A stretch of 64,000 bases of DNA, from contig CAZCYQ010000002.1 in NCBI GenBank assembly GCA_964503085.1, positions 469 through 64,468 of the forward strand, written 5' to 3'. Position numbers and translations under genes: made by a program. Shown one piece after another: positions 30,728 through 47,712 of this stretch (within the stretch, counting starts at the first letter, position 1; every line of letters starts with the position of its first letter). Below the pieces are notes generated by a model. That model did not search any database and was not told the origin of the DNA. It saw only the letters and a program-made list of their open reading frames with translations. Source of the DNA: an uncultured Rhodothermaceae bacterium (GTDB lineage: Bacteria > Bacteroidota > Rhodothermia > Rhodothermales > Bin80).

Positions 30728-31054
30728 CTACCCGCTACCAGGAACCCAGAGGTGGCGTGAGAGAACCACGCAACCATCTTCATCAAACGTTACCCCTTCC
30801 CTCCGGAGCAGGTGTTCCATAACGTCAATCCCACCAAACTGCTTCGCCCCTGTCAACGCACCATACCGATTTACAACACGGTGACACGGCAAATGCGCCC
30901 CTTTCGCCGCCTTGAGGGCCCACCCAACTGTGCGAGCTGCGCTCCTGCTTCCCAAGTATTCGGCAATATGTCCATAAGTGGTCACCTTTGAAACTGGAAT
31001 GATGGCAACCGTGTCCCAAACCTGCTGAAAAAAATCCACTCGACTTTCAATCAT
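30728..31054 (-). CDS. MGMT-family protein (O6-alkylguanine-DNA alkyltransferase DNA-binding domain only)
   Basis: 108 aa with TTYGHIA...RTVGWALK...LPCHRVVN, i.e. a PCHRV active-site motif that includes the Cys. Its ATG shares one base with the upstream gene's TGA. Confidence 0.8.
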   Translation of the reverse strand: MIESRVDFFQQVWDTVAIIPVSKVTTYGHIAEYLGSRSAARTVGWALKAAKGAHLPCHRVVNRYGALTGAKQFGGIDVMEHLLRREGVTFDEDGCVVLSRHLWVPGSG

Positions 31055-32832
31055 CAGCGCATCTCCACATGAAGCAACCTGGATACTTCCAAGCCTGATA
31101 TTTCATCTCTGACCCTAACTCTTATACGAATCTTTCCTGTCCTTCTACCGATGTCCAGAACAACCTCGGTTTCCTCCGTCCGGCTCCGCCCCTCATACTC
31201 CACACTAGTCGATGAAGTACGCCGGCGCTCGGGCGTAACTTCGTAGGTCACTGTGTATGAGGTTGCATCTCGTCCACCGTAGGTAAGGTGATAAATTTCA
31301 AATGCCAGACCGAATCTCATATCTGGAAAAACCCACTCATGAGGCCACGGCTCCGAGGCCCCGCTTTTGGTATAGACGAGCGGCTTCAGATCACTCATCT
31401 CCAAAGCAAAACCGCTCGCATCCAGTGAACGAAGTGAGTCTATTCGTCTGGACATAACCTGCAAGCGAGAGCCGACTTCCTCAGCATTGACCCCGTACTG
31501 ATCCCATTGGAGAGCTAAGTGATATAGTCCGGTATCTCCAGTCACCTCAATTGTCTGTACTGGAATCGTTGCCGGCTCATCAGTAGGCGGAATCTCAATA
31601 CGTATCGCACCCGTACTGCTACGCCGCAATGTATGATCAGCCCTCTCCTGCGCTGTGTAGGTTTGCACGAAATACACCGGTTCTAATGCATGCCCTGGAG
31701 CAATCAGACCACCGGGTTCAGGGTGCCAATAGATCTCTGTTGTTGTCGTGCCATCGGGTTCCAGAAATCTCGCATAACGCACGCCCAATGGCAGTGTGCG
31801 CAAGGTTGACAGAACATCCGAGGTACTCGGAGGCAGTAATATTTCTTGTTGGTACGCTGCTTGATCATCTTCAATTCGTGCATTCGTGATCATGCTTTGG
31901 GCAAAAATATGTGCAGGTTGGCCCAAATCCTGGTCGAACTCTGTGGCCTCGGGACGCTCACCCTGAGTCAGTAATGTAGCCCCTGTGATAATTTTCGCGT
32001 TCTCCGTTGCATCGCGGCTCTGCAGGCGTCCCGGCTCACCGTGTGCAGCCAGCCATCTATCAACCTCATTGAATCGAGACCCAAAATGATAGTGCTCCAA
32101 GGCAAGCTGTCTGTACACAGAGCGCATAACAGCAAGTACCATCCTGGACTTGACCAGTCCGCGCCCTCCCTGCCCCAGACCAGACCGGAGTGCTGTTGGC
32201 AATAGATCGTAGGTATCACCTAGTCGATACGGCTTGCCATCTCTAATAAAGAGAAAATAGGCATCGCGGTCAATATTCAAATATCTCCAGAATTCATTTT
32301 CTGGAAAATCTCCGGGGCTCACAGCAACACCCGGTTGATAAATTGCGTCAATGAGCAATGGATCATCAAATACAATCCGAGTAATGCGCTCCGGTGCACC
32401 ATAGCGAACATAAATTTCCCCGCGCGCATCGTAACCCATCGGACACGCAGTACATACGTAGTGCTCCAAAGCATATTGCACACGCCGAACGTGCTCTACC
32501 ATCCGTTCATTGACTTCAGAGGCCGGTAGGGGGTCCTGTGCTCTCCACCAGCCTACAATGGCATCTCGGGCTTCCGTGGTTACATGGACAGAATCCGATA
32601 CAATCACCATATTCGCGACAGTTTCAGGAAGTAATGGAAGAAGCCGCTGTACTTCCGTGATCTGGGAACCATCATCCATTGAAGGGTCAGCCGCCAGAAT
32701 AGTCTTGTATTGCGCTACGGACTCGGCTATGGCCTCCAGATCTGTCGACTGCGCATGAGCAGTCTGAATAGCCACTAGACAAGCGGCTAAGCAGAGTGCA
32801 CAATGCATTGCCGAAGACTTCTTAGTAACCAT
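31054..32832 (-). CDS. secreted GWxTD-like domain protein
   Basis: Signal peptide. The segment VGWWRAQDPLPASEVNERMVEHVRRVQYALEHY...MGYDARGEIYVRYGAPERI matches the shape of the GWxTD domain (FW..DP...N....Y..R...A...F...GWxTDRG.vy..yG.P), but the name-giving GW-TD reads GY-DA. The C-terminal ~400 aa are unassigned. Confidence 0.55.
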   Translation of the reverse strand: MVTKKSSAMHCALCLAACLVAIQTAHAQSTDLEAIAESVAQYKTILAADPSMDDGSQITEVQRLLPLLPETVANMVIVSDSVHVTTEARDAIVGWWRAQDPLPASEVNERMVEHVRRVQYALEHYVCTACPMGYDARGEIYVRYGAPERITRIVFDDPLLIDAIYQPGVAVSPGDFPENEFWRYLNIDRDAYFLFIRDGKPYRLGDTYDLLPTALRSGLGQGGRGLVKSRMVLAVMRSVYRQLALEHYHFGSRFNEVDRWLAAHGEPGRLQSRDATENAKIITGATLLTQGERPEATEFDQDLGQPAHIFAQSMITNARIEDDQAAYQQEILLPPSTSDVLSTLRTLPLGVRYARFLEPDGTTTTEIYWHPEPGGLIAPGHALEPVYFVQTYTAQERADHTLRRSSTGAIRIEIPPTDEPATIPVQTIEVTGDTGLYHLALQWDQYGVNAEEVGSRLQVMSRRIDSLRSLDASGFALEMSDLKPLVYTKSGASEPWPHEWVFPDMRFGLAFEIYHLTYGGRDATSYTVTYEVTPERRRTSSTSVEYEGRSRTEETEVVLDIGRRTGKIRIRVRVRDEISGLEVSRLLHVEMR

Positions 32833-32841
32833 AATCCTCGA

Positions 32842-34995
32842 CTAAGTGTCAGGGGCTCCCAGTTGTACGGACCTGAAGGGTACCTTTTCAATTGTAGATG
32901 TTTCTTCACGGATGCCAATCATTTGCCGCATCGGTACGTTCTCAAACTGCTGCACTACGCCGGTAGCCGGCCATACGACCGTTACCAACTCAATTGCTGT
33001 GGCCTTGCCGAGGCCAATTTCCAAGCGAAGTGGTGACGACCCGAAACTCGCACCCGTTCCGACTGTCCGATGTAGGGTATCCACATCTGTAACAATTGAT
33101 ACACGTGCTCCAATCGCGCTTCGATTGGATCTTGTTCCTTCCAGAGAAAGCACAACCCAGGCATTTGAATGCCCCGGATTCTCAAAGAGCACATTGCGCG
33201 CAAGGTCTCCCTCAAAGGCTCCTCCCATAACCTGATATACATCCTGCGCTCCGTCGTGATTTATATCTCCGAACGCTACACCATGCCCTTTCTGTAAATG
33301 GCCAAAACCTCCTGCAGCCGTAACTTCTTCAAAGTGGGAGCCCCCAAGATTCCGGAACATCCTGTTAGGCATGAGCGCCCGCAGGTCTGGATCACCAGTC
33401 CCCACATAAAAATCCAGCCATCCATCTCCATCCAGATCTCCGTAGTTGCACCCCATTGTATACATAACTTTATTCAGTCCCGCTTTTTCAGTTACATCTT
33501 CAAAAGTACCATCCTGCCGATTCCGGTACAACCGGGGGTGCTCATCTCCACCGGGCAATCCAAGATATTCGGCCGCTATATCACCGGCCGTGGCACGCCA
33601 ACCAGAAACAAACAGGTCCAGCCAGCCATCCTGATCAAAATCCCAGAACCACGCCGGGAAGCTATCTATTGGTTCCTGTACACCCGCATTTCTGCTTACA
33701 TCCGTGAACACCTTTCCATTCTCATTACGCAAAAGCAGGTTTGATTCGAGGTACCTGCTGACAAACAGATCGGGCCAACCATCATTGTCATAGTCTCCCC
33801 AGACCACGGCCTTTACATAGCCCAAAAGCGCAACTCCATATTCCCGGGCGGACTCCACAAAAGTCCCATTGCCCTGGTTGACAAACAACTCGCTTGGATG
33901 CCGCCCTGCTTGTGGATTGGACTCATTCCCAATGAACAGATCCAGATCCCCATCACGATCAAAGTCGCTCCATGCAGCTGTCTGTGTCGGATGACGGGAA
34001 TACACCCCAGATTCTATGGTAACGTCTTCGAATTTACCCCGACCATTATTGCGCAGAAGCGAATTGGGGTGCCCCTCGCTCAGCCACGCTCCACGCAGTA
34101 CAAACACATCCTGATCACCATCATTGTCGTAATCTGCGTGCACCAGGTTTAGGCCTCCTGTCAATCCGGTCAATCCGGCTGCATGTGTACGCTCCTCAAA
34201 TTTGCCTTTACCGTCACTCTCAAAGTACCGAATCTGATCACGCAATCCCCAAGAAGAAACTATCAGATCAAGCCACCCATCACCCGACAAATCTTCCAGT
34301 ACGACGCCTCCAGACAGCCCCATAACATTTACACCCAAGAGCGGAGCCACATCCACAAATCTCGAAATTGATGCCCCTTGACGGAAACTATCCACGGGAA
34401 TCCTCCACTTGGCATCAACGCGGTCTGGATGTGTACCCAGCGTCATGTGTGCCAGGTTCAGCAACCACAAAGCATTCATATCCTTCGGGTCCTCTTCAAG
34501 AATTTTTTCATACCACGGTATAGCCATTGCTGACCCCCGAGGCAGCTTATGAACGCCTGCGGCACCAATCGGGAACAGGCACCTGGAGGCGCTGTGATCC
34601 ACCAAGCAATTCTCTTGCTCTCCAATCCGCAGATGGCTGAGCGCGAGATGATCCATGGCAGCCAAACGCCACGACGGATCAAATTCATCCGGAGAGGCCT
34701 CCAATAATTGTAGAATCTCTTCAAATACTCCGACGGCAGCTTCGCTATCCCCTGCCCGCAGCAACTCTGTTCCTAGCAAAGCGCTGTACTGTATACGGTC
34801 GGGAAGCGCTGCTGGAACGATCTGCATACCCAGCGCAGCTGCGCGTGCCACATTTGCATGAGCATTCCGGCGAGGGTTCTGATCGGTTTCCGCGGCAATT
34901 TCTTCAAGCTCTGCAACCATTTGTACCGTGCCCTCGGGCTCGGTTGAGCTGCATGCAGCAAATAACAAGAAGGCCAATGTCAAATGACGTGACAT
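32842..34995 (-). CDS. CRTAC1-family lipoprotein (TPR + FG-GAP/VCBS repeats + ASPIC/UnbV)
   Basis: Lipobox LLFAACS and an N-terminal TPR-like region. Repeated D.DGDG..D(L/V)(F/Y)V FG-GAP motifs are present (DYDNDGDQDVFV, DFDRDGDLDLFI, DYDNDGWPDLFV, DLDGDGWLDFYV). The C-terminus VGTGASFGSSPLRLEIGLG is an ASPIC/UnbV signature. Confidence 0.85.
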   Translation of the reverse strand: MSRHLTLAFLLFAACSSTEPEGTVQMVAELEEIAAETDQNPRRNAHANVARAAALGMQIVPAALPDRIQYSALLGTELLRAGDSEAAVGVFEEILQLLEASPDEFDPSWRLAAMDHLALSHLRIGEQENCLVDHSASRCLFPIGAAGVHKLPRGSAMAIPWYEKILEEDPKDMNALWLLNLAHMTLGTHPDRVDAKWRIPVDSFRQGASISRFVDVAPLLGVNVMGLSGGVVLEDLSGDGWLDLIVSSWGLRDQIRYFESDGKGKFEERTHAAGLTGLTGGLNLVHADYDNDGDQDVFVLRGAWLSEGHPNSLLRNNGRGKFEDVTIESGVYSRHPTQTAAWSDFDRDGDLDLFIGNESNPQAGRHPSELFVNQGNGTFVESAREYGVALLGYVKAVVWGDYDNDGWPDLFVSRYLESNLLLRNENGKVFTDVSRNAGVQEPIDSFPAWFWDFDQDGWLDLFVSGWRATAGDIAAEYLGLPGGDEHPRLYRNRQDGTFEDVTEKAGLNKVMYTMGCNYGDLDGDGWLDFYVGTGDPDLRALMPNRMFRNLGGSHFEEVTAAGGFGHLQKGHGVAFGDINHDGAQDVYQVMGGAFEGDLARNVLFENPGHSNAWVVLSLEGTRSNRSAIGARVSIVTDVDTLHRTVGTGASFGSSPLRLEIGLGKATAIELVTVVWPATGVVQQFENVPMRQMIGIREETSTIEKVPFRSVQLGAPDT

Positions 34996-34999
34996 GAAT

Positions 35000-37900
35000 C
35001 TACTGCTTTGTCAGCAATACCCTGCTGTCCCCCTCCAGTTTCACCGTAACCGGTTGTTGACCACCGGGCCAGATCACTTCAACGCCAACCGGAGTGCCGC
35101 TGAGCCCGAGGGTAGCCGTTGTCGCATTCTGCGACCAATATCCCGTTCCTCCAGTTACTAAACGGGCTGGTCCTCGACTCCCATCTGAATAAATCACACA
35201 AAGAATTGCCCCAATAGCATCCGTGGCAGAGGCAAATTCAACAGAAATGCCCTCCCTGTACGACACTTGACGATACACAAGTGTCGCACCATTGTGCTGA
35301 GAAAACGCAACTTCATCCTGCCCGTCTCCATCAAAATCTCCAACAGAGACCGCCCGCCCTTCTCCATAAACTTCAAAACCAGATTGGGACTCCGGGGTGA
35401 ATGTGCCATCACCATGACCTAAAAGCAAGAGTCCCCGACCCGCATCCTGCCTCGGAGTTGACAAAGGATAAGCGAACCAGTTCTGAGATAAAATGATGTC
35501 TTCATACCCATCAAGGTTCGCGTCCAGTACAACAGGGCTGATCCCTGCGCTGTATTGTGCTTCTGCAGGCAATGAACGGTGCTCAAAATGATCCCCCCTG
35601 TTAAGAAAGATGCTTGATGCATACGTATCCGCTTCGACGATCTGAGCATTTTCCATTGCTGACGATGGCAGAAGCTGCGCAACCTCCATCGTGCTGAAGT
35701 CCTGGTGCGAAGTAACGCGCATCTGTATTGGAGGGATGGCCGATATCAGATCAGCGAGCATACGTGAAGGTCGATAACTATTCATGATCGGATCCAGGAA
35801 GGATTCCAAAATGTCAGTCGTGCCATTAGCATCAAAATCGCCGTAGTGCAGTCGCACCTTTGTGCCGCGATCATAACGACTGTTCCACCCGGCATTTGAA
35901 GCAACAATATCAAGCCTGCGATCACCGTCAAAATCACCGATTGACACACCACGCCACAAGCCTAGAAAGGGTTGTAGACCGAAAAATTCAGTCTGATCAG
36001 AAAAACCCTCCTCTCCGCTTATCAGTACCCGAACCGGCCCCCATTCAGTAGCAAGCACCAGATCCTCGCGTCCGTCGCCATTCATATCTCCGAACACACT
36101 GCCGCTTACAGGTCCTAATCCACTCAAAGATTCTCCAAGCCTGTAAGCTCCTTGTTCATTCAAATAGATGTGACTGTTTGCAGCTCTCGGATATGCTCCG
36201 GGAATGAAATGCCCCCCAACAAAAAGATCAAGATCCTCGTCCATATCGATATCTGCCACCGACAGCGGTCCGGGAACGCCCGGGCCAAACGGAATCTTTT
36301 GATGCTGTAATTCTTTGCCATCCGGCGCAATATCGTAAATGTGGACCCAGGACGAGTCTGGAAAGCGCTCGTAGCCGGACTCCCCCACCATCATGCGTAT
36401 ACGGCCATTGCTGATGGGGAGGGCAATCATGCCTGTTGCGTCACCTGAAAGTGGATCCAAGATGGGGCGCCCCTGCAGTCTGAAGGTCTGGTTCTGTCCC
36501 GCACCTTCCAGTAACTCGGAACGACCATCCCCATCGACATCTATAGCAGCGAGTGCAGGTCCCCGCCGGCTGAGGCGCCATGGCAGTAGCGGCTGAAGCT
36601 GAAAGTCATCAAACTCCTGCTCAGGCCGTGGCTCAGACTGCGAATGGAGCGTATACATGGGTGCCACCGGCGAAACCGGCGGTACCTCAGTTGGATGCGT
36701 TGCCCCCGATTCTTCAATTATGTACAGTCTGTCACCCTTATCCACATTGACACTCGAGTGTTTCCCACTCGGCCAGGCAACTTCAACCCGGCATGGCGCG
36801 GATCCCATTGCAAAAACCGCGATCAGTTGATCGGATGACAGGTAACCTCCGCCCAGAGACATTTGCTTGGACTGCTCCGGTAAACCCTCACAATGCACAC
36901 CAATGTCTGCCCCAACCCCACCGGTGTTTGGGGGCTCACCTTCCAGAATAACTGCCAATCGATCCGTCGTCCCGGTATTGCGATAAACACCAGGGGACGC
37001 GTTTAGTCTGTTTGTAACGATGTCCAGATCTCCATCTCCATCCAGATCTCCCAATGCCATACCATGCGCTACATCGGCGCTTTGACCTAATCCCCATCCC
37101 CCGGGCATATCCTCAAACGCTAAATCTCCACGGTTACGAAACGCTACGTTTTCTAGTGCAAGGGGTGGAAAATACAGGAGTAGTCTTCTGGCTGCCTGCC
37201 AGGAGGGAGCGGATGCCATGCGGCGCTGCTCAATTCCCTGTGCATCCAGATCCTGTACATCATATACATGCCCCGTCGTAATCAAGATGTCTTCCCAGCC
37301 ATCTAGATCAACATCCATGAAGCTCGTAGCCCAGGACCAGTCAGATGCAGCCACCTGTGCAAACCAGGCCAGTTCTGCAAATGTGGTGTCCCCTCGACCA
37401 ACCATGAGTGCATTTTGCATTTCCTGCGGACGAAACGACAAATCACCAGGTGGGCCTTCCAGGGGTATTCGTGTGTTCCGCTGACGAAGCCTCCGGGAAT
37501 AATCGCGACTCAACATGTCGGTCATGAAAAAATCAACAATACCGTCGCGGTTAACATCTGAAAAATCCACTGACATCGTGGCGTTACTCGTCTTGCGTAA
37601 CGCATGATCGGGCGCATGTCGAAAAACACCATTTCCAAGACCGATCCAGAGTGCATCCGGGCTGTCAAAATCGTTACAGACATACAGATCTGCTATACCG
37701 TCCCCCGTCACATCATAGAACTTGGCCGTGAGCGCCCAATCCCTTGGGGTTGATGTTATCGGCTTTCCTTCCGTATCCAGAAAAGCCCCCTCGATCCACG
37801 AGACAGGAGCAAAATGCCCCGAACCGTCATTCAGATAAAGCCCATCCGGTTCAGCAAGCTCACTGCGTATGACTTTGGTTCCGATTTGTGTGAACCTGTA

Positions 37901-38608
37901 GTGTGCCCGGAATTCCTCTTTTGGAACCTGCCCTTCCTCCGAGAGGACCGCTTCCCAGCTAATGGCCGCAGGGGGCAGACTGTCGGCCAGTGCAATGCGC
38001 TTGTACCGAGCAATGTATGCATCCAAATCTCCGTCATGATCAACATCAGCCAGGGTTGCAGTCGTGCCGGCGTACGAAGAATTCAGCCCTGCAGCGTTAG
38101 GGACGAGCTCAAACCTGCTCCCTCCCAGGTTGCGGTATACCGCCCCCGGACCAAGCGGCATAGTGAGAAGCAGATCCAAATCATAATCACCATCCAGATC
38201 CGCCATGACTACGCCGGCAGTGGCACGGGCCGTGCTGTCCAGCCCCGCGCGGACAGAAATATCCTCAAACCTCCAATCGCCAAGGTTCTGGTAGAGCGCG
38301 TCTGGGGCCGATAGCCGAGCTACATACACATCCGGAAGTCCATCCCCCGTCACATCTCCAATTGCAATACCGGATCCATGCATCATGTGCCGGTTGGCTA
38401 TTATCGCGTCCTGTGATACAGCGTTGACCGCTATTATCCCGGACCGCTGCGAATCAACCTCCGTGAAACCCGTTTGCGAGCGACCCTGCACATTCAGCTC
38501 CCGATAACGAAAGCCATCTCCCTGTGTCCAGTTGGTCGGTGAATGAGTACAGCCTGCTATCGCGGTAACGGTCACGATTGCCCATACTCGATATCCAGCA
38601 TACATCAC
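35000..38608 (-). CDS. FG-GAP/VCBS repeat + ASPIC/UnbV lipoprotein, double module (paralog 1)
   Basis: Lipobox AIAGC. There are many GD.(D/N)GDG..D motifs. Two UnbV/ASPIC-like signatures occur, mid-protein LGGGYLSSDQL and C-terminal GGTGYWSQN. Confidence 0.85.
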   Translation of the reverse strand: MMYAGYRVWAIVTVTAIAGCTHSPTNWTQGDGFRYRELNVQGRSQTGFTEVDSQRSGIIAVNAVSQDAIIANRHMMHGSGIAIGDVTGDGLPDVYVARLSAPDALYQNLGDWRFEDISVRAGLDSTARATAGVVMADLDGDYDLDLLLTMPLGPGAVYRNLGGSRFELVPNAAGLNSSYAGTTATLADVDHDGDLDAYIARYKRIALADSLPPAAISWEAVLSEEGQVPKEEFRAHYRFTQIGTKVIRSELAEPDGLYLNDGSGHFAPVSWIEGAFLDTEGKPITSTPRDWALTAKFYDVTGDGIADLYVCNDFDSPDALWIGLGNGVFRHAPDHALRKTSNATMSVDFSDVNRDGIVDFFMTDMLSRDYSRRLRQRNTRIPLEGPPGDLSFRPQEMQNALMVGRGDTTFAELAWFAQVAASDWSWATSFMDVDLDGWEDILITTGHVYDVQDLDAQGIEQRRMASAPSWQAARRLLLYFPPLALENVAFRNRGDLAFEDMPGGWGLGQSADVAHGMALGDLDGDGDLDIVTNRLNASPGVYRNTGTTDRLAVILEGEPPNTGGVGADIGVHCEGLPEQSKQMSLGGGYLSSDQLIAVFAMGSAPCRVEVAWPSGKHSSVNVDKGDRLYIIEESGATHPTEVPPVSPVAPMYTLHSQSEPRPEQEFDDFQLQPLLPWRLSRRGPALAAIDVDGDGRSELLEGAGQNQTFRLQGRPILDPLSGDATGMIALPISNGRIRMMVGESGYERFPDSSWVHIYDIAPDGKELQHQKIPFGPGVPGPLSVADIDMDEDLDLFVGGHFIPGAYPRAANSHIYLNEQGAYRLGESLSGLGPVSGSVFGDMNGDGREDLVLATEWGPVRVLISGEEGFSDQTEFFGLQPFLGLWRGVSIGDFDGDRRLDIVASNAGWNSRYDRGTKVRLHYGDFDANGTTDILESFLDPIMNSYRPSRMLADLISAIPPIQMRVTSHQDFSTMEVAQLLPSSAMENAQIVEADTYASSIFLNRGDHFEHRSLPAEAQYSAGISPVVLDANLDGYEDIILSQNWFAYPLSTPRQDAGRGLLLLGHGDGTFTPESQSGFEVYGEGRAVSVGDFDGDGQDEVAFSQHNGATLVYRQVSYREGISVEFASATDAIGAILCVIYSDGSRGPARLVTGGTGYWSQNATTATLGLSGTPVGVEVIWPGGQQPVTVKLEGDSRVLLTKQ

Positions 38609-38609
38609 A

Positions 38610-41600
38610 CTACTCCCGCGTGATTAATATTGACTGCGCACTGGCCTGGACAGCTGTCGAGGTAGACGTGCCATCCGGCCAATTGACGTGTACTTTCACA
38701 ATCGCGTCACGCGGAGCCAGTATAGGTTCAACACTGCTCTGTGACCAATATCCGCTTCCTGCAACTATGGGCACTGAGGGTCCCAGGCTGCCGTCGCGGT
38801 ACTCCGCACGTAAATTTCCGCCGACCGCAGCCCTATTCCAGCCAGGAACACGCAATGTTACACGCAGCCCTTGAGTGGCAGTCCTGTTCTGAAGGTGTAC
38901 TACCGGTCCGGCATTCTGTGCAACTGCAAGATCCAGGCGACCATCACGATCGAAATCCGCGCTTACCGCAGCCCGCTGTGAGCCGTAAATGTAAATCCCC
39001 GATACCTTCGCCGGTTGGGGGACCAGCTTATGGGATTCATCCGCCAACAATAGCAGGCCCAAGCCACTGTCCAAACGTGGGTAACCTGACGGCACTGCAA
39101 AAAAGTTTTGACTCAGAAACAGGTCTGTACGCCCGTCACCGTTGAAATCCCCCGGTACTGGCGCAAAAGCGGGCGACCATTGGGCTTCATCGGCAAGCGG
39201 CACCGCCTCGTAGTGAGATTCCCGATTCAGGAATACCATCGTCCGCCATTCTGTGACCTCGTGAAAATCAGCTCCGCTCAATACTGGACCAAAAATATCC
39301 ATCGCCGAGCGTGTCGCGAAGTCCTCGTAGGTCCGAATATGCTGCCGCAATGTCGGTAAGGCATGCGTAAGCGTACGGAAATCCCGTATCAAGCCAAACG
39401 CATCTAATTCCGGGACATGCTGCACCTCCAGAATATCCAGACTGCCATTGTTATCCAGGTCTCCGTAATACGCACGGAGCGGTACGTCCTGAGCATAGGG
39501 GTGATTTTGTCCCCAGTTGGTTGCAATCAAGTCCAGTTTGCCATCCCCGTCAAAATCTGCGGGTGCTACACCATTCCACCATCCCGTATGCTCAGCTAAT
39601 CCCAACGTACGTGTCATCCGCACGAGCCGCCCGCCTCCCCGGTTGTGAAATACATGTACCGGCCCCCACATCGTCGCAAGCGCCAGATCAGTAGTGCCAT
39701 CACCATTCAGATCGGCGGCTGTGGCCCCGGAAACGAGTCCCAGTTTTTCAAATGGTGCACTGAGCGTGTCATCTCGTACGAGTATTCCGTCTTCGCGCCG
39801 ATAAATGGCACTGCTCACACTCACCGGATACTGTCCAGGCATAAAATTGCCGCCTACAAAGAGCTCAAGCCTACCATCGCCGGTAAAATCTCCCAATGCG
39901 AGTGGTCCGGGGCTCTCCGGCCCGAAGGCGTATGAGGTATCGCCGCGATATCGCATCGAGACCCGAGTAATTTTCGACACTTCTGCGGTATCCTGTGGAG
40001 TGCGTTCATAGTTGCTAATTCCTGCCAGTACTATATAGCTTCCTGGGACAATTACTATACCCCCGTGATCCCCAGACGAAGGCTCACTGAAGCTTCGGAT
40101 GATTTCGAACTGTCCGCCGTTATTAAATACAAATCTAAGCGACTCACCCTTGCCTCCCCCCAGAATCAGATCCTCATAACCGCTTCCACCATATCCTGTG
40201 ACCGCTAGCGAAGGACCTCGCTGGCTAAGTTTGTGCGGCAGAAGCGGTTGTCGATTAAAGTCTGTATAACTACTTTCCTGATGCTCCAACCCTATGCTTA
40301 ACGCTGTAAACATTGTCTCCATAGACTGCGCTACAGATGGTTTGGTCGCTTCTATTTGCGGCTGAAAGATTCTGTACTCGTTACCAGGCAAGACTTCCTC
40401 TATGACACTGCGACCACCGCCCGTCCAATGCACTTCAATCTGTGCGCCCGGGGCATAGGCAAACGTGAGCGCTGCGTCGCTTGAGGAAAGGTATTGTCCG
40501 CCTGCAATAATTTCCTGTCGCTGAGGAGGCAGGCTGTCGCTGGTGACCAGCACCACTGTGCCAACCCCTTGCGGGTTCGGCGCATTCCCCTGAAGACGAA
40601 CGAGAATTCGTTCACCTTCTGCGTCATTACGAAATACCCCCACGGGAGCGTCCAGGCGATTTATGATCACATCCTGATCTCCGTCTTCGTCAAGATCTGC
40701 GAAGGCCATTCCATGTGCCACATCGGCGACCACTCCGAGCCCCCAACCTTCCTCAACCCACTCAAACCGGGCGTTGCCGAGATTGCGGAACGCAATATTC
40801 GGTAGATCCAGGTCTGGAAAATCCAACAGAACCTCTCGCCAGGGGCGTCGGGAAGATCCTGCCGCGATTTGCGCGTCTGCATCCATTGCATCGTATGCAT
40901 GACCGGTGGTGAGGAGCAAATCCTGAAGACCATCCAAATCCACATCAATGAATGCACTGCTCCATGTCCAGCCCGTTGCGGCAACGCCACTCATGCGTGC
41001 TAGCTCGGAGTAGGTCGTATCGGAGCGATTCAACAGCAGCATGTTCTGCATCTCCTGCGGACGTGCATGAATATCTCCCATTATTACGACTTCGGGAGGT
41101 ATTACAAAGTGCTGTTTTTGCCGACGTATATAATCTGGGCTCAGCATGTCCGCCAGAAACATATCCACATCCCCATCTGCATCAACATCTGCCGCAGCCA
41201 CAGACATCGTCGACTGACTGGTTTTCCTCAGAGCTAGTGTAGACACTGCCCTGAAAGTACCTTCTGCACTGCCCAGCCAAAAATGATCTGGGCTTTCGAA
41301 GTCATTGCATACATAGAGATCCTGATATCCATCTCCATTAAGGTCCTGGAAGCGTACCGCCAACGTCCAGTCTCGCGGAGTTTCCGTCAGTGGATGACCT
41401 CCTTCATCCAGAAAAAGTCCCTCGGTAAACGGTACTTCGGTAAAGTACCCTGTCCCATCATTGAAGAATACGCGATCCGGCTCTGCCAGCTCCACACGCA
41501 TCAGGCGGTCGCCCTGGCGTATGAGTTTGTAATCGTCGGCCCAATAATCGTTGACCACGAACGAGTCGGCGACCTGTTTAACGACACGTTCAAAAGTGAT

Positions 41601-42248
41601 TTCATTTGGCGGCCAGATATCTTTGACTGTGGCCTCCTTGTAGAAGCCTGCATATATATCCAAATCACCATCCTTATCCATATCTGCCAGCGCAACCGAG
41701 GTTGCACCGCCGGACTGTGGCAGGTTTGCCTGCGCAGTATAGTCCGTGAATTGACCTGTGCCATCGTTCAGGAATAATTGTACACCGCTTCCGAGCGATG
41801 TGACAAATAGATCCAGATCACCGTCTGCATCCACATCAACGAACGCCGCCCCGGTTGCTCGTGGATTCACCAAACCCAGATTAGCCCGAAGGGTCACATC
41901 CTCAAATTGCCAATCCCCCTGGTTGCGGTGGAGTGTACTCCCATGTTCCATACCTGCCAGAAAAACATCAGGCAGGCCGTCTCCGTCTACATCACCTGTT
42001 GCCACACCCGATCCATTCACAACATGTCGGTTGGTTATGAAAGCCGAGGTGCTTATTGCATTGTTGAAAGCAATGGAATTGGAGACTTCCGTAAACCCTG
42101 TACCTTCACCGATCGGAGAAGCAAGCGGGCGTACTTCATATCCTTCGAAGGGCGTCCACGTACGTTCAGTCTCCCGACTACACCCAACCAAGACCAGCAC
42201 GCCTAGCAGGACAAAGGTCAGGGCACTATTAGCAGGCCATCTGAACAT
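38610..42248 (-). CDS. FG-GAP/VCBS repeat + ASPIC/UnbV lipoprotein, double module (paralog 2)
   Basis: Lipobox LVLVGCS. It is colinear with the downstream paralog (e.g. PRDWTLAVRFQDLNGDGYQDLYVCNDFESPD versus PRDWALTAKFYDVTGDGIADLYVCNDFDSPD). ASPIC signatures are AGGQYLSSSD and AGSGYWSQSS. Confidence 0.85.
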   Translation of the reverse strand: MFRWPANSALTFVLLGVLVLVGCSRETERTWTPFEGYEVRPLASPIGEGTGFTEVSNSIAFNNAISTSAFITNRHVVNGSGVATGDVDGDGLPDVFLAGMEHGSTLHRNQGDWQFEDVTLRANLGLVNPRATGAAFVDVDADGDLDLFVTSLGSGVQLFLNDGTGQFTDYTAQANLPQSGGATSVALADMDKDGDLDIYAGFYKEATVKDIWPPNEITFERVVKQVADSFVVNDYWADDYKLIRQGDRLMRVELAEPDRVFFNDGTGYFTEVPFTEGLFLDEGGHPLTETPRDWTLAVRFQDLNGDGYQDLYVCNDFESPDHFWLGSAEGTFRAVSTLALRKTSQSTMSVAAADVDADGDVDMFLADMLSPDYIRRQKQHFVIPPEVVIMGDIHARPQEMQNMLLLNRSDTTYSELARMSGVAATGWTWSSAFIDVDLDGLQDLLLTTGHAYDAMDADAQIAAGSSRRPWREVLLDFPDLDLPNIAFRNLGNARFEWVEEGWGLGVVADVAHGMAFADLDEDGDQDVIINRLDAPVGVFRNDAEGERILVRLQGNAPNPQGVGTVVLVTSDSLPPQRQEIIAGGQYLSSSDAALTFAYAPGAQIEVHWTGGGRSVIEEVLPGNEYRIFQPQIEATKPSVAQSMETMFTALSIGLEHQESSYTDFNRQPLLPHKLSQRGPSLAVTGYGGSGYEDLILGGGKGESLRFVFNNGGQFEIIRSFSEPSSGDHGGIVIVPGSYIVLAGISNYERTPQDTAEVSKITRVSMRYRGDTSYAFGPESPGPLALGDFTGDGRLELFVGGNFMPGQYPVSVSSAIYRREDGILVRDDTLSAPFEKLGLVSGATAADLNGDGTTDLALATMWGPVHVFHNRGGGRLVRMTRTLGLAEHTGWWNGVAPADFDGDGKLDLIATNWGQNHPYAQDVPLRAYYGDLDNNGSLDILEVQHVPELDAFGLIRDFRTLTHALPTLRQHIRTYEDFATRSAMDIFGPVLSGADFHEVTEWRTMVFLNRESHYEAVPLADEAQWSPAFAPVPGDFNGDGRTDLFLSQNFFAVPSGYPRLDSGLGLLLLADESHKLVPQPAKVSGIYIYGSQRAAVSADFDRDGRLDLAVAQNAGPVVHLQNRTATQGLRVTLRVPGWNRAAVGGNLRAEYRDGSLGPSVPIVAGSGYWSQSSVEPILAPRDAIVKVHVNWPDGTSTSTAVQASAQSILITRE

Positions 42249-42262: not shown

Positions 42263-42766
42263 TTACATCACGCCACCCTTGAACTCGTTCTCAAGGTACT
42301 CGGCAATTTCTTCAAAGTACGCTTCCCGTTCGGGCACAATAGGAACGTCTACCCAGTTACCGCCTACTGCAAGTTGTCCCTCGCACTCGGCTATCATACG
42401 TGCGGCAAATGTACTGCCTATACCTCCTGCACGGCTACGCGGACGTGCCGTGACCGAAATGCGCACTCTCACTTGGGTATACCCGGCCAGTTGTTCCTCT
42501 TCAAGCGCAGTAACTTCTTTCCATGATGCCTCCATGCGTACATCCTCAGCCGTATCTACGCGTCGATCTAATCGATACCCGTACCGTGTCAGTAACGCAT
42601 CTTCCGCTGTTGTGACTATATGATTCCGCGCCGAGGTCCCGAGGTTGAACCTCAGCGTACTGCTGGCGGCACGGTCGCCCCCAGAACCGGGACCGGAACA
42701 GGCCCCTAGGAATAAGGCGATGCCCAAAGCCAAAATCGTTACACGATACATCGAATCTACCTGCAT
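42263..42766 (-). CDS. small lipoprotein of unknown function
   Basis: 167 aa with lipobox LFLGACS and no motif I recognise. It lies between the SusD-like and VCBS genes; the start may be the Met at 42751. Confidence 0.6.
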   Translation of the reverse strand: MQVDSMYRVTILALGIALFLGACSGPGSGGDRAASSTLRFNLGTSARNHIVTTAEDALLTRYGYRLDRRVDTAEDVRMEASWKEVTALEEEQLAGYTQVRVRISVTARPRSRAGGIGSTFAARMIAECEGQLAVGGNWVDVPIVPEREAYFEEIAEYLENEFKGGVM

Positions 42767-42844
42767 TTAGTCATGGTTATCCAAATATACACACAGGGAG
42801 GCCAGTGCTTCCGACGCACTGACCCTCCCTCTTATCAGATATGC

Positions 42845-44494
42845 TTAGCGAGGACGGACATTGTCGAAATCCCGCCTATAATCGTCCCGTTGATAGGCCG
42901 TCGGAGCAGCTCCAGTACCACCGACACCGCCAAACGTGTAACTTTGTAGTCCCAGCGTCTCCAATTCCCTGCCTGGCACCGGGAAATGGATGGGGGTACC
43001 TGTAACAAGGTCACCCAATCCCCTGTCGTCATAATAGGCAAGACCAGCCCAGGTCTGGAATGTCTCTATGCGCCGTTCATGCTTAAGCTTCGCCCACAGA
43101 CTGGCCGAATCCATGTGACTCTGCGCATCTTTAGACGAACCGGGGGAATCCGTACCAGCGGCTGGATTAAGCATCCCCCTGCTTACACGGGTTTTGTTAA
43201 TCAGATCGGCAACTGTAGATGTACTGCCACTCGTACGCAAAAGGGCCTCGGCCTTGTACATATCCATCTCTGCCATAATCATGTGGGGCATTACACCATT
43301 AGCCTTCCCCAAATTATAGTACTGATAACGCTTATGATTATGAGATGAATAGTGATAAACACCGCGAGCAGCCGGGAATGGCCCATTGTTTCCCTGGTAT
43401 TCGAAGTCAGAGCCATCAACGGTCAGGTCGGTAGCGTCTCCTACGATCCTGCGATCCGCTGTGGCAATGTCAAAGACTAAGCGTTCTCCCAGGGGTTTTG
43501 CCAGCCACGCATCGTAACCGCCAGACTCATCCGCCGGCCCAATCGTGCGGTAATCAGCTCTGCTCCAGGTGGTTCCATTTTGCCCGTAGAACTTAAGGCA
43601 ATCAAATTCCGTCTCGCCATCGTCATCGCCAATGGGCGAGAAATCTTCGGTAATCCCGGCATCTACGCGGCTGATTACCTCACTCCAGTTTACCGCGGCG
43701 CGTTCAGACTCATTACGAGCAACCTGAACAGTTAATCGCGCTATGAAGGAGTTGATCAGTTTAACCATGTCGTCTGAAGTCACATCCAAGCCCCAGATCC
43801 AATCCTCCGCTGCAGTAAACGAGAATGAGCCTGTTTGTGCAATCGCACGTGCTTCTTCCAGCATCTGAATGGCCGCTTGGTTCACATCCATGTACGGACG
43901 CAATTCCAGTGCATCATTCTCTAGATCCACCGTCTCATCGACAATGAATGCCTGATCAAAGATCAATGAGAGCGTTCCATGCATTAGGCCTTGATTCATT
44001 TTTGCAAACGCCTTCAGACGTGCTGTGTCATGACCTTCGCGTGTGAAGACGTTGCTCTCCACACTTTCTTCTTCTTCAGCACGCGCGATAGCCTGCAGGG
44101 CATCGTTTGCATTTGAGATGCCCCGATAGGAGTCAAACCATGGTTCCCTCGTGGAAGAAGCGCGACTATAGGTTGAACTGTTATCCCAAGCAATGCGAGG
44201 CTCACTTGACATGTCTCTCATTCCCCAGTTGGCCCACGATGAGGAGTTCTCATCTGCCAACGTCGAAAAGAACATTGCACCATTGCCGCAACCCTGGATG
44301 CTGAGCCAGTAATCAGCAAACGTACCTTTAACCAAGTTCACAACATCTCCAGGCTGTGCAAAAGCAACCGTCCGGTCTGGAGCATTATTGTTTTCAACGG
44401 CCAAATCCTGACAGCCGACAGCGCTCAACGACAGTATGCCGACTAGTGTATAAAAAGCGATCCGCTTCATTTGATTTATGTTTTCAAGTTTCAT
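42845..44494 (-). CDS. RagB/SusD family nutrient-uptake outer-membrane lipoprotein
   Basis: Lipobox LSAVGCQD and ~540 aa with TPR-like helical composition. It lies immediately downstream of a SusC-like gene, with a 14-nt gap. Confidence 0.85.
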   Translation of the reverse strand: MKLENINQMKRIAFYTLVGILSLSAVGCQDLAVENNNAPDRTVAFAQPGDVVNLVKGTFADYWLSIQGCGNGAMFFSTLADENSSSWANWGMRDMSSEPRIAWDNSSTYSRASSTREPWFDSYRGISNANDALQAIARAEEEESVESNVFTREGHDTARLKAFAKMNQGLMHGTLSLIFDQAFIVDETVDLENDALELRPYMDVNQAAIQMLEEARAIAQTGSFSFTAAEDWIWGLDVTSDDMVKLINSFIARLTVQVARNESERAAVNWSEVISRVDAGITEDFSPIGDDDGETEFDCLKFYGQNGTTWSRADYRTIGPADESGGYDAWLAKPLGERLVFDIATADRRIVGDATDLTVDGSDFEYQGNNGPFPAARGVYHYSSHNHKRYQYYNLGKANGVMPHMIMAEMDMYKAEALLRTSGSTSTVADLINKTRVSRGMLNPAAGTDSPGSSKDAQSHMDSASLWAKLKHERRIETFQTWAGLAYYDDRGLGDLVTGTPIHFPVPGRELETLGLQSYTFGGVGGTGAAPTAYQRDDYRRDFDNVRPR

Positions 44495-44508
44495 GTTCGC
44501 TCACCAAA

Positions 44509-47500
44509 CTAAAACTGGAATTCCAGCTTCGCCCGAACCGTGCGAAAGGGTGGATAATTAAAGTCGTCCACGCGGTATAACGTCGCATCCGACCCGGAAC
44601 CCACTTCGGGATCAAACCCTGAATAATCAGAGAATGTCAGTAGGTTGCGTCCTATGATGCTTGCTGAAACGGAATGCAGTACATTGCCAAAGACGCGTGA
44701 GAGCTGCTGACGGTTGAATGTATATCCCACCGAAAGCTCACGCAGTTTGATGTATGTGGCATCTTCTACAAAATGGCTGTTCCGTGCAGTAGCATCGTAG
44801 AGTACTTCGTAGTATGTGGTGGACTTCTTCATGTCTTCTTGCTTACTCCCCTGGTCCTGATCGGTGTTACGACCATCACGATAGCTCCACTGCTTTGTGA
44901 AGTTGTAAACATCACCGCCAATTTGAGCACCCCACAACATGTACAAAGTTATTCCTTTGTACCGGAACGTAGAATTAAATCCAATGCTGAAATCTGGAAG
45001 CGCATCAGCGATCTGGACCTGATCCGTCTCATTGTCCTCGTCGTAGTACTTGATTGGGATTCCCCAGCGATAGTTGTTCTCACCCGCAGAAACCGTCGTA
45101 CCCCATAGATCATCCTCCCCACCCAAAGCGCCATCTGAACCCGGACCGCTGGTGTAACTGTTCCCCTGACCAACCGCTACAACATAGCCGTCGTCGTTCA
45201 CGTCAAAGTAGCTCGCATCCACACCGATGGGCAGATCCGAGAGTTCCGTGATGAACCTGTTGCCGTACATTGAACCTAGGATTTCGCCTTCCCGATAAAA
45301 GAACAGGCCCTGCGGTCCACCCAGGTATGGATTGGAGTGAAATTCGGTAATCTCCTGATGCGTACGGTCAAAAATAATACCGACCTCGAAATCCATATCA
45401 CGAGAATTGTAGACATTTGCATTCACGCTGGCCTCCACCGTATTTGATGTAAGATTACCTGCATTACGCCACTGTGTACTAAACCCGAAGTATCCCGCAA
45501 GTGGAACTCGCAGAAGCAGGTCCTCCACTTCGGTATCCGCATACACCAATTCAATAAAAATGCGATCCAGAACCCCTACGTCCAATCCAACTTCTGTTTC
45601 CGTCTGCAATTCCGGCTTCAGGAACGCATTCCCCAAGGTCGCCTTTGAGAGCTGGCCATTACTGAGTGAGAGTGTCTCATATTGTGCCTGGAAGCCGGGG
45701 CGCCCGCCCGCTGTTCCGATTGAGGCACGCAGCTTCAATTCGGTAACTGGACTGTTGCCTGGCCAGAAGTCTTCTTCCGAGATGCGCCATGCGGCACTGC
45801 CGCGGTAATAAGACTGCCAGCGCTCTTCTGCGCCGAACAACGAACTGCCGTCGCGGCGGAAAAATACATCCATGATGTACTTGTCCGCGTAGTCCATCCC
45901 GGCAGTTGCATAGTAGCCTTCAGACCGGACCGTTGAAGAACCGTTGCCAAATATTTTTTCGCCTTCCGTCTCCACATTGGAGAGGTCTGAGATACCCAAA
46001 GTCACGATATCGGTCCCCAGTACAAATTCTGAGAATGAATCAAAGTCCTCCACCTGCGCCTTGAGTTGCGCACGTGTAGTGAAGCTTCCAAACCGCTTGC
46101 GGAATGAAGCCGTAATATCGTAATTGATCGCCTCGCTGACCGAGTTACGCCGTTCAATGCGGCCATCATTTAACGAGGAGGGATCAATAGTTGCGAACCC
46201 GATGTCGTAAAACTCTAATTCATCCCTGTCGGAACGATCATAGCTGAAGTTGCTTTCTAAGTCCATCCATTCAAGCGGACTCCAGCGTGCCCGGAAATTC
46301 CCGAGGATGCGTGAGCGATCCTGGTTCATATCAGCGTTCTCAATCACATACAGCGGATTTTCCTCTACCGCCAATGGGTCTGCCTGAACTTTGAGCTCAC
46401 CTGCTTCATCTTCTGCTGACAGGTTGACCAGCGGGTTTGTGAACATCAAACCAAAGAACGGATTGATGTTTGAATTTGAAGCCAAGGATGAGGTTACCGC
46501 ATCATTCTTCGACTGGGAGTAGAATCCCGAAGTTGAAACGGTAAGGGTAGGTCGAATCCGGTGATCCAGATTAACCCGGACATTCCTGCGCTGGAGGCCT
46601 GTCAGGCCCTGAATCGCCCCCTGCTCAACAACATTCGTAAACGAAGCCAGGAAATTTGTCTTGGAACTGTTCTGGCTTACGCCGACATAGTTGGTCCATG
46701 TATTCCCAGGATTAAAAAATTGGTCAAAAGCGTTATAGAGTGTGCCTTGATACGGGTTATCATAGAAAGCTGCACCATGTGGGTTGGTATCCTGGAGCGT
46801 GCCTGGTCCATATCCATTGCTCAAACAATTATCACACTCATTTTTTGCTCCAGAATTATCCAGGAAATTCCCGGATCCATCCACCCGCAGATCATGAGAC
46901 GTATTTGCCTGAAATGACTTGACTACACCACTCACGCCATACTCGTTACGAACCGTCACACGAGTCTGGTTCAGGGGGACGGCTCCGCCCCGCTGCGTTG
47001 TGATATTGATCACGCCATTTTGGGCTCGTGATCCGTATAGCGAAGAGGCTGCGGCTCCTTTGACGATCTCTATGTTTTCAATATCAAGCGCATCAATATC
47101 GACCTGGTTTGCTCCTAGAACTACCCCGTCAACAATGAAGAGCGGCTGATTACTCCCGGTAATGCTGGTGGCTCCCCGAAGGCGCACGGAAACCGCGTCT
47201 CCCGGCGTGCCACTGCGTGCCTGAACGGCCACACCCGCAACCTTACCCTGGATTGAAGCAACCGGGTTAGACGCAGGTGCCAATGTAATTGCCTCAGAGT
47301 CCACCGAGCTCACGGTGAAGGCCAGTTTCTTCCTGGGCGTAGCTTCGGCAACACCGGTAACTACGAACTCGTCCAGCTGCAACAGGTCGAGAGCCAGAAC
47401 AAAATCTTCTGTCATAATGCCCTCGCTGATCGTGATGGTTCGAACCTGATCGGTAAAACCAACGTAGCCAGCGGTGAGCTCCAGTGTTTGTCCTACATTT

Positions 47501-47712
47501 GCGGCAGGCACCTGGAAAGTGTAGTTTCCGTCTAGATCTGTGGACGCACCTACGACCAAGGACTGAATGAGCACATTCGCTCCGATGAGCGGCTCGCCTG
47601 TGTCATCGGTAACCTTTCCAGAGATTATACTCTGTGCGCTCACCAGCCCCGGAAAAAGCAACGCACATAACAACGCTGCTGTCAAAGAAAACGTTTTCAT
47701 GAGTCTTTCCAT
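44509..47712 (-). CDS. SusC/RagA family TonB-linked outer-membrane protein
   Basis: Start placed at the Met at 47712 (MERLMKTFSLTAALLCALLFPGLVSAQ); the track start at 47811 adds a non-signal extension. It has a CarboxypepD_reg-like domain (ISGKVTDDTGEPLIGANV...DLDGNYTF), a plug (IENIEIVKGAAASSLYGSRAQNGVINITTQRG) and a terminal aromatic residue ...KLEFQF. Confidence 0.9.
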   Translation of the reverse strand: MERLMKTFSLTAALLCALLFPGLVSAQSIISGKVTDDTGEPLIGANVLIQSLVVGASTDLDGNYTFQVPAANVGQTLELTAGYVGFTDQVRTITISEGIMTEDFVLALDLLQLDEFVVTGVAEATPRKKLAFTVSSVDSEAITLAPASNPVASIQGKVAGVAVQARSGTPGDAVSVRLRGATSITGSNQPLFIVDGVVLGANQVDIDALDIENIEIVKGAAASSLYGSRAQNGVINITTQRGGAVPLNQTRVTVRNEYGVSGVVKSFQANTSHDLRVDGSGNFLDNSGAKNECDNCLSNGYGPGTLQDTNPHGAAFYDNPYQGTLYNAFDQFFNPGNTWTNYVGVSQNSSKTNFLASFTNVVEQGAIQGLTGLQRRNVRVNLDHRIRPTLTVSTSGFYSQSKNDAVTSSLASNSNINPFFGLMFTNPLVNLSAEDEAGELKVQADPLAVEENPLYVIENADMNQDRSRILGNFRARWSPLEWMDLESNFSYDRSDRDELEFYDIGFATIDPSSLNDGRIERRNSVSEAINYDITASFRKRFGSFTTRAQLKAQVEDFDSFSEFVLGTDIVTLGISDLSNVETEGEKIFGNGSSTVRSEGYYATAGMDYADKYIMDVFFRRDGSSLFGAEERWQSYYRGSAAWRISEEDFWPGNSPVTELKLRASIGTAGGRPGFQAQYETLSLSNGQLSKATLGNAFLKPELQTETEVGLDVGVLDRIFIELVYADTEVEDLLLRVPLAGYFGFSTQWRNAGNLTSNTVEASVNANVYNSRDMDFEVGIIFDRTHQEITEFHSNPYLGGPQGLFFYREGEILGSMYGNRFITELSDLPIGVDASYFDVNDDGYVVAVGQGNSYTSGPGSDGALGGEDDLWGTTVSAGENNYRWGIPIKYYDEDNETDQVQIADALPDFSIGFNSTFRYKGITLYMLWGAQIGGDVYNFTKQWSYRDGRNTDQDQGSKQEDMKKSTTYYEVLYDATARNSHFVEDATYIKLRELSVGYTFNRQQLSRVFGNVLHSVSASIIGRNLLTFSDYSGFDPEVGSGSDATLYRVDDFNYPPFRTVRAKLEFQF

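Follow-up and report, generated by a model that had tools for sequence, protein, structure and literature searches.

What does a SusC/SusD pair import, and by what means, when the genes behind it encode large beta-propeller lipoproteins and no recognisable glycan-degrading enzyme? Bacteroidota characteristically take up nutrients through SusCD systems, and those understood so far either act alongside known glycan-binding proteins and enzymes or serve for the import of peptides. We addressed this question in a stretch of DNA of 64,000 nucleotides (nt), the window, from an uncultured Rhodothermaceae bacterium (Rhodothermales; contig CAZCYQ010000002.1 of assembly GCA_964503085.1), where eight minus-strand open reading frames (ORFs), all in the same direction, span positions 30728-47712. 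They encode, in this order, a SusC-type transporter, a SusD-like lipoprotein, a lipoprotein of 167 amino acids (aa), two FG-GAP/ASPIC propeller lipoproteins of 1212 and 1202 aa (FG1212 and FG1202), a third one of 717 aa, a GWxTD-domain protein and a small MGMT-family protein. We propose, with a confidence that falls a little short of even, that this cluster is a SusCD import machine in which Ca2+-binding propeller lipoproteins resembling vertebrate CRTAC1 serve as modules for substrate capture and possibly for processing. We are led to this proposal because the genes are tightly packed, the SusC is bona fide, the SusD fold is present, the propeller proteins carry lipoboxes, the gene order is conserved and the same linkage is found independently elsewhere.

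A preliminary description of the locus, made from the letters of the sequence, had proposed eight minus-strand genes separated by -1 to 78 nt, and an ORF map of the window reproduces this layout exactly. From susC to the MGMT gene, the successive gaps measure 14, 78, 14, 1, 4, 9 and -1 nt, the last being an overlap by 1 nt of the MGMT gene start with the GWxTD gene stop. The identities that it gave to the SusC, the GWxTD-like protein and the MGMT-domain protein are likewise borne out by family models, as detailed for each below. Lipoboxes are found in the SusD, the 167-aa protein, FG1212, FG1202 and the 717-aa protein. The arrangement is not a chance product: kept in seven close and three distant genomes, it lies far beyond chance.

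The first gene (44509..47712, minus strand like all cluster features below) encodes a SusC/RagA-type TonB-dependent transporter of 1067 aa. It scores above the cut-offs of both relevant NCBIfam models, TIGR04056 (541.2 bits, cut-off 368.25) and the TIGR04057 signature (46.7 bits, cut-off 46.2), and is composed of a signal peptide, a CarboxypepD_reg-like domain (Pfam CarbopepD_reg_2), a Plug and a barrel; Pfam gives no match to an STN signalling domain. Sequence matches in the PDB are SusC homologues and RagA, at about 1e-49 (6.6e-49 for RagA). With the ATG at 47712 as start, the protein begins with a normal signal peptide; the reading frame extends further upstream to a GTG at 47811, but this longer form is probably not used.

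Directly downstream of susC, across the first 14-nt gap, lies the gene for the SusD-like lipoprotein of 549 aa (42845..44494). Its only Pfam score, to SusD-like_3, is 21.5 bits and thus under the 27-bit cut-off, no match is found in the PDB by single-sequence (phmmer) or profile search, and alignment to canonical SusDs with hhalign yields a weak C-terminal match only. In fact, it is the predicted structure that reveals the relationship. An AlphaFold2 (AF2) model built from a 47-sequence alignment (pLDDT 85.6, pTM 0.86) was searched against the PDB with Foldseek, and the top 50 matches all belong to the SusD family, including SusD itself and BT1762, with 3jys as the best (E 5.7e-8) and TM scores of up to 0.66 at 12-14% identity. 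Because the fold search succeeded where sequence methods failed or were weak, we consider the assignment settled: by its modelled fold and its position, this lipoprotein is a SusD. The SusD of the preliminary description therefore stands by fold and not by sequence, where the Pfam score is sub-threshold and the PDB is silent. The subfamily counts 339 detected homologues and, among the 120 listed, nearly all lack a Pfam match. This model-based, fold-level proof of a Pfam-invisible SusD subfamily is new here.

The three large lipoproteins, FG1212 (38610..42248), its 1202-aa paralogue FG1202 (35000..38608) and the 717-aa protein (32842..34995), all contain FG-GAP_3, FG-GAP and UnbV_ASPIC domains according to Pfam. 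Together they amount to 3131 residues, in line with the roughly 3100 residues of propeller protein estimated previously. Motifs of the Dx[DN]x[DN]G type occur 12 times in FG1212, 9 times in FG1202 and 6 times in the 717-aa protein, and these proteins are predicted to be loaded with Ca2+ at such DxDxDG-type loops. The basic module, an FG-GAP/VCBS beta-propeller followed by an ASPIC/UnbV beta-sandwich, is present twice in tandem in FG1212. The AF2 model of the mature protein (pLDDT 91.8, pTM 0.92) is almost all beta, and its best Foldseek match is murine CRTAC1 (9etn; E 4.5e-21, TM on the target 0.65, about 18% identity), the other matches in the top 50 being multi-propeller proteins of a generic kind, among them DDB1, SF3B3, GH74 and the sensor domain of BT4663. 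Searched against the PDB, a profile of the double-propeller family retrieves CRTAC1 (1e-32), integrin alpha chains and YenB. FG1202 is about 40% identical to FG1212 and has the same architecture. The 717-aa protein starts with a helical region, continues with one FG-GAP propeller (FG-GAP_3, 159 bits) and ends with an ASPIC/UnbV domain (UnbV_ASPIC, 46.5 bits); it had been described as TPR-CRTAC1-like, of which the propeller/ASPIC part is confirmed by Pfam and the TPR part is weak (TPR_14, E=6e-4, below the cut-off).

Vertebrate CRTAC1/ASPIC is thus the best match of these proteins in both sequence and structure, with a propeller of the same FG-GAP/VCBS type, DxDxDG motifs included, and the ASPIC/UnbV beta-sandwich behind it. 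In contrast to CRTAC1, the bacterial proteins have a lipid anchor, the module is doubled in tandem in two of them and preceded by the helical region in the third, and no Pfam EGF-type domain match is found in them. More than 5000 homologues of FG1212 were found in the protein collection. Across the family, polar motifs outside the Ca2+ loops are invariant, for example, in mature FG1212 numbering, CNDF 292-295, R319/S322/M326, R374-x-Q376...N380, G427-H428..D431, H490-G491 and the inter-module H634-x-E636...D641-F642..QPLL. Few stretches of the family are as well conserved as the segment that joins the two modules of FG1212 (mature residues ~633-657; H-x-E....DF..QPLL...LS..GP), which hints at a functional or plug-like element and not at a passive linker. 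The second double propeller looks dispensable or redundant, because the FG1202 orthologue in the complete chromosome of a related Rhodothermales (L002) is split by a ~1.5-kb insertion (about 15570-17110) that contains a 376-aa transposase ORF of the insertion sequence (IS) type, and because the corresponding position of a more distant genome (L022) holds gene fragments only.

Is this a recent assembly of genes or an established locus? Synteny of SusCD with ASPIC/UnbV genes, which the preliminary description had suggested comparing across genomes, proved to be conserved at both distances. The whole cluster with its flanks is syntenic in the seven close relatives. The closest relatives are 84-93% identical in FG1212 and include bins that, judging by their names, may be derived from sponge microbiomes. 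In the three distant genomes (L021, an 8.1-Mb contig; L022, a 5.9-Mb contig; and L028), the order runs SusC, divergent SusD, a protein of 135-165 aa, one to three propeller proteins, the TPR-propeller, in two of the three a GWxTD-like gene (sequence-confirmed in L022 only) and MGMT, and the murB neighbour is shared, with the ccm genes where visible. In L021 and L022, identity to the window proteins is 62-69% for SusC and 59-65% for SusD, to be compared with 59-63% for MurB and 61-72% for the Band7 protein next to the cluster. Among the propeller proteins, the 717-aa protein is best conserved (56-59%), the double propellers reaching 42-48%; the 167-aa lipoprotein is at 44-50% and the GWxTD protein, in L022, at 38%. 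Because SusC and SusD are as conserved as their housekeeping neighbours, the locus appears to be a stable, vertically conserved core locus of this Rhodothermales lineage, which is unusual for a polysaccharide utilisation locus (PUL). This housekeeping-like conservation and fixed position, as judged from the compared sequences, are new here. Within the conserved frame, the number of propeller modules varies (the first propeller gene of L021 has a single module), and in another locus (L008) a GDSL/SGNH hydrolase occupies the GWxTD slot. By a proxy that equates contigs of identical size carrying each family, and hence as a lower bound, at least 27 of the 66 SusD-subfamily contigs of at least 15 kb also carry a double-propeller homologue among the best 120.

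Related arrangements exist beyond this lineage. In a Lewinella (L015) and in a Bacteroidota metagenome-assembled genome (MAG; L013), SusC is likewise accompanied by one or two SusD genes and then by at least two tandem FG-GAP/ASPIC double-propeller genes of ~1100 aa. These loci differ from the window in that their SusDs are canonical SusD_RagB proteins, in that the 167-aa lipoprotein, the TPR-propeller, the GWxTD protein and the terminal MGMT are missing, and in that their propellers are only 26-30% identical to those of the window. The gene orders thus indicate that the SusCD-propeller linkage exists independently, with canonical SusD, in other Bacteroidota. In fact, SusCD and propellers are a widespread and by no means rare combination, one that can already be seen in public annotations.

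How might such a machine operate? We envision that one operon, from susC to the MGMT gene, encodes a TonB-powered import machine of the outer membrane, in which the propeller lipoproteins would be anchored in the outer membrane beside the SusC barrel and its SusD lid. There, they would take the places that surface glycan-binding proteins and surface enzymes hold in the utilisomes of Bacteroides. The propellers would bind a polymer or conjugate outside the cell, for which an anionic glycan or glycoconjugate is the most plausible candidate, and pass the substrate or its fragments to SusD for import through SusC. The 167-aa lipoprotein and the GWxTD protein would be lineage-specific accessory parts, and the MGMT gene a passenger. 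In support of such a capture function, the VCBS/FG-GAP superfamily includes sugar-binding lectins (PVL, tachylectin) as well as integrins (PMC8023676).

The comparison with characterised systems helps to place this proposal. As in the SusCD utilisomes and PULs of Bacteroides (for example the levan system BT1762-63; PDB 8aa0, 5t3r), the locus combines SusC, a lid of the SusD fold and further lipoprotein genes in a co-directional array. Unlike them, it comes without a glycoside hydrolase (GH), polysaccharide lyase (PL) or carbohydrate esterase (CE), without a hybrid two-component system (HTCS), extracytoplasmic function (ECF) sigma or SusR regulator and without a sugar transporter or catabolic genes; its SusD is beyond Pfam and PDB sequence detection, and the locus is core and not variable accessory. 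SusCD systems that lack carbohydrate-active enzymes (CAZymes) are a known category. RagAB of Porphyromonas gingivalis (PDB 6sli) is likewise a SusCD-type pair without CAZymes, and RagA is among the best SusC matches, but RagB is not among the 50 structural neighbours of the window SusD model. We know of no propeller lipoproteins in the rag locus and, to our knowledge, no biochemical function has been established for the CRTAC1/ASPIC family in any organism. Learning what the propellers bind or cut would thus provide a function for a family of more than 5000 homologues and explain a recurrent CAZyme-free type of SusCD locus in environmental Bacteroidota; it might also inform the role of CRTAC1 in vertebrates. 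At present this value is limited, since the sequence does not reveal the substrate and the arrangement is already in public annotations. That the role of these modules in SusCD-type uptake is not established, as first remarked from the sequence, agrees with the literature: full-text searches returned no functional study or characterisation of SusCD-ASPIC/FG-GAP clusters, among texts that include few subscription-journal papers.

Could the locus nevertheless be a classical PUL, whose enzymes have simply not been recognised? Of the features that define such a PUL, the susC/susD pair is present, and neither a recognisable CAZyme nor a linked regulator accompanies it. No GH, PL, CE or carbohydrate-binding module was matched by Pfam or NCBIfam in the eight cluster proteins, the flanks or 10 further large ORFs of the window, and no HTCS, ECF-sigma/anti-sigma or SusR family was found in the same set; the Pfam scan of the window covered all but a few ORFs of at least 250 aa. 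The 10 further ORFs are housekeeping genes, for example AcrB, thiolase, an aminoacyl-tRNA synthetase and TctA. Within this scope, the absence of CAZymes and regulators noted in the preliminary description is upheld for the cluster. Hidden GH or PL domains, which would have spoken against that absence, were also looked for: a separate domain of this kind is ruled out in FG1212, whose AF2 model consists of the two propeller/ASPIC modules only, and the family profile retrieves no lyase or hydrolase. Membership of the PL11 rhamnogalacturonan lyases (YesW/YesX, RGL11) is ruled out as well, there being no RGL11 match in Pfam, no lyase or hydrolase in the PDB profile search at E<=10 and no such lyase in the top 50 structural matches.

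Catalysis by the propellers themselves, or by the GWxTD or the 167-aa protein, is possible. If the propellers were an unrecognised lyase or hydrolase family, the locus would be a classical PUL after all, and this we regard as unlikely. The idea draws on the fact that PL11 is also a Ca2+-binding propeller and falls into the same VCBS supercluster (PMC8023676). Catalytic activity is common among propeller folds, and GH74 is found among the generic structural matches of FG1212. Moreover, an active site could be made up of the invariant polar motifs that lie outside the Ca2+ loops, but they are equally compatible with a binding site or a structural core. A further point in favour is the GDSL/SGNH hydrolase in the GWxTD slot of L008. 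All the same, neither Pfam, NCBIfam nor the PDB shows a similarity of the propellers to a GH, PL or CE, including at the permissive threshold of the profile search, and their sole strong structural neighbour is CRTAC1, which is not, as far as we know, an enzyme.

It is likewise doubtful, if for other reasons, that the imported nutrient is not a glycan but, for instance, a peptide or protein fragment, a chelated metal, a cofactor or an organophosphate, with the propellers acting as high-affinity scavengers. There are precedents: RagAB imports peptides, and BtuG and XusB are propeller lipoproteins that serve TonB-dependent transporters in Bacteroides. The housekeeping-level conservation of SusC and SusD and their fixed murB/ccm position across distant genomes would fit such a nutrient, as would the lack of CAZymes, sugar transporters and catabolic genes in the cluster. 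The SusC is equally close to RagA and to glycan-type SusC proteins, a PAP2-family protein follows the propeller genes of L013, and paralogous loci, described below, adjoin sulfate-assimilation genes. However, the cluster holds no metal- or cofactor-related gene, the sequence upstream of susC matches neither a riboswitch nor any other Rfam family, and three proteins with 3100 residues seem large for the capture of a small ligand. Moreover, the top 50 neighbours of the SusD model are all of the SusD family, several of them solved with bound glycans, and BtuG and XusB are not among the top 50 Foldseek matches of FG1212, in a search that included no comparison aimed at them. Finally, it is very unlikely that the propellers are adhesins or "eukaryote-like" host-interaction surface proteins that share the neighbourhood and have no role in import: FG-GAP/VCBS proteins are commonly annotated as adhesins (PMC3914696), several close relatives may, by their names, be MAGs of sponge symbionts, the post-susD slot of the paralogous loci holds interchangeable adhesin-type proteins and an IS element disrupts one propeller gene in L002, but the gaps of 1-14 nt among the propeller and flanking cluster genes suggest co-transcription and translational coupling, the order is kept at 42-48% protein identity, and in other Bacteroidota propellers became linked in the same way to canonical SusD proteins that are unrelated to this one.

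That the double propellers, with the divergent SusD, the 167-aa lipoprotein and the GWxTD protein, make up a new class of SusCD utilisome in the core genome of a Rhodothermales lineage, built on a new propeller-based enzyme family or on non-glycan import, seems improbable to us. If true, it would provide the first biochemical role for the ASPIC/UnbV-CRTAC1 module, which bacteria have in common with vertebrates.

The paralogous loci (L023-L025) merit a closer look. Their SusDs are 48-50% identical to that of the window, and their SusCD genes have as neighbour, in divergent orientation, the gene of a 1200-aa HAMP/HisKA sensor kinase whose long N-terminal part has no assigned domain. The absence of a regulator thus applies to the window locus and does not extend to its paralogues. 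These SusCD genes lie upstream of sulfate-assimilation genes (PAPS_reduct-family, sulfate adenylyltransferase/APS kinase-like), to which L023 adds a Na/sulfate symporter-like gene. The slot after susD varies from one locus to the next, holding an opposite-strand double propeller, two proteins of the Calx-beta/type IX secretion system kind, or a leucine-rich repeat protein plus a propeller. Beyond Bacteroidota, double-propeller homologues occur in Gemmatimonadota, Verrucomicrobiota, Planctomycetota and Calditrichota, sometimes alone. A few of these have weakly carbohydrate-related neighbours, in mild support of the proposed machine: a GH31 and a DctP-type solute-binding gene in a Gemmatimonadota locus (L014), a TAT-signal GFO/IDH/MocA oxidoreductase in L010 and sulfatases in L027.

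On which side of the outer membrane would the lipoproteins reside? Acidic residues just after the lipobox cysteine are a lipoprotein export signal in Bacteroides and Capnocytophaga. In the SusD, the lipobox (...AVGC) is followed by QDLAVEN, and the orthologues are near-invariant at C-Q-D-L-A-V-E. FG1212 (CSRETER) and the 717-aa protein (CSSTEPE) have acidic residues 3-6 positions after the cysteine, as the SusD orthologues do, and double-propeller orthologues often have D or E at +3 and +5. FG1202 (CTHSPTN) and the 167-aa family show no acidic residues just after the cysteine. Overall, the pattern fits a situation in which some but not all of the lipoproteins are surface-exposed; the earlier prediction of surface-exposed propellers is compatible with the acidic residues of FG1212 and the 717-aa protein and is not supported in the case of FG1202.

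Several observations weigh against a glycan-capturing import machine of the kind that we favour. First, genes for a transporter of the inner membrane and for catabolism in the periplasm or cytoplasm, which typical PULs have, are missing from the cluster. Second, the conservation of SusC and SusD equals that of MurB and Band7, and the position of the locus is fixed, which is unusual for a niche-specific glycan locus and fits a more basic nutrient. Third, the variable post-susD slot of the paralogous loci suggests that the coupling between SusCD and propellers may be loose. Fourth, some double-propeller homologues stand by themselves in a context unrelated to this one (L029), and others come from phyla that have no SusCD. 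Fifth, FG1202 and the 167-aa lipoprotein, given their post-cysteine residues, may face the periplasm.

The remaining proteins of the cluster are more restricted in distribution. The 167-aa lipoprotein (42263..42766) consists of a lipobox cysteine, a Gly/Ser-rich linker without acidic residues and a sequence that finds no match in Pfam, NCBIfam or the PDB, whether searched singly or as a family profile. Among 1.8 billion library proteins, its family comprises 148 representative clusters, nearly all of 150-175 aa. L021, L022 and L028 have orthologues of 135-165 aa in this slot, and the gene comes directly after susD in every syntenic locus; one distant homologue is on a contig of only 1.5 kb. 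Directly after the MGMT gene of L021, at 17091-22411, we observed a second SusC, a 429-aa SusD, a 158-aa lipoprotein that aligns weakly with the 167-aa family (19% identity) and then a TPR protein with weak or faint TPR and cytochrome-c3-like Pfam matches only.

The GWxTD protein (592 aa, 31054..32832) is matched by TIGR04514 over residues 86-153 at 37.3 bits, above the cut-off of 28. The motif itself reads as degenerate in the translation (GYDARG), the protein has no Pfam or PDB match as a single sequence or family profile, and it appears, from its N-terminus judged by eye, to carry an ordinary signal peptide and thus to be secreted. Only 73 homologues were found; those with a named source are all from Rhodothermales, Rhodothermaceae or Bacteroidota MAGs. 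In the distant loci, the slot holds a homologue in L022, a 724-aa gene without Pfam match in L028 and nothing in L021. In Rhodothermaceae bacterium RA (L026; CP030158, 5549-12241), the genes for a TonB-dependent receptor of 981 aa and a protein of 409 aa without Pfam match are again followed by a GWxTD homologue, here of 746 aa, and this subfamily may be generally associated with TonB-dependent transporters. The link of the 167-aa lipoprotein and GWxTD families to a SusCD locus is new here.

The last gene (30728..31054) encodes a single-domain protein of 108 aa with an MGMT DNA-binding domain (PF01035, 86.6 bits), an intact PCHRV cysteine (LPCHRVV) and no signal peptide; its best PDB match is Atl1 of S. 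pombe. From these features, it would be MGMT-type in chemistry and, lacking the N-terminal domain, alkyltransferase-like (ATL) in size. The MGMT gene also ends the cluster in L008, L021, L022 and L028, whatever precedes it (a GWxTD gene, a GDSL hydrolase or a TPR-propeller), and it is probably a co-transcribed cytoplasmic passenger of the DNA-repair type, not a functional component of the system.

How the cluster is controlled can be approached from its non-coding sequences. Rfam gives no family match anywhere in the window or upstream of susC, where no riboswitch or known RNA that would name the ligand was found. About 35-65 nt before the susC start, at 47744..47776 on the minus strand, lies an imperfect palindrome, GGGACCTATCAGGTCCAGTGATCTATTGGTCCC. 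Its core, CAGGTCATGTGATCTG, recurs with at most one change in L001, L002, L004, L006 and L007, the window copy having two changes, and in L007 it is preceded by a near-identical second copy. Its fold is no better than that of shuffled sequences; the palindrome may be an operator or an element of the 5' untranslated region. After the susD stop, at approximately 42794..42828, a putative stem-loop with a GC-rich stem of 15 bp precedes a moderately U-rich tract (minimum free energy z = -1.9). The stem is kept in eight close relatives with no compensatory changes, and it may act as an attenuator or an mRNA stabiliser that sets the expression of susCD relative to the downstream genes. Scans for sigma-70 promoters and terminators gave counts equal to the shuffled expectation.

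Upstream, the cluster is flanked by Band7, MurB and CcmB/C/E genes and, downstream, by genes for a GDSL hydrolase, an ABC ATPase and an FtsX permease. The GDSL gene (29783-30496) was considered as a member of the cluster and ruled out, as its strand is opposite to that of the cluster and its partners are the downstream genes for the ABC ATPase and the FtsX permease. This downstream border (26607-30496), with a plus-strand GDSL/SGNH hydrolase divergent from an ABC ATPase and an FtsX/MacB-type permease, has an arrangement that we take to be that of E. coli tesA-ybbA-ybbP. A few kb upstream of the cluster, beyond the ccm genes, the minus strand encodes a 902-aa outer-membrane protein with CarboxypepD_reg and OMP_b-brl_3 domains (52006-54714).

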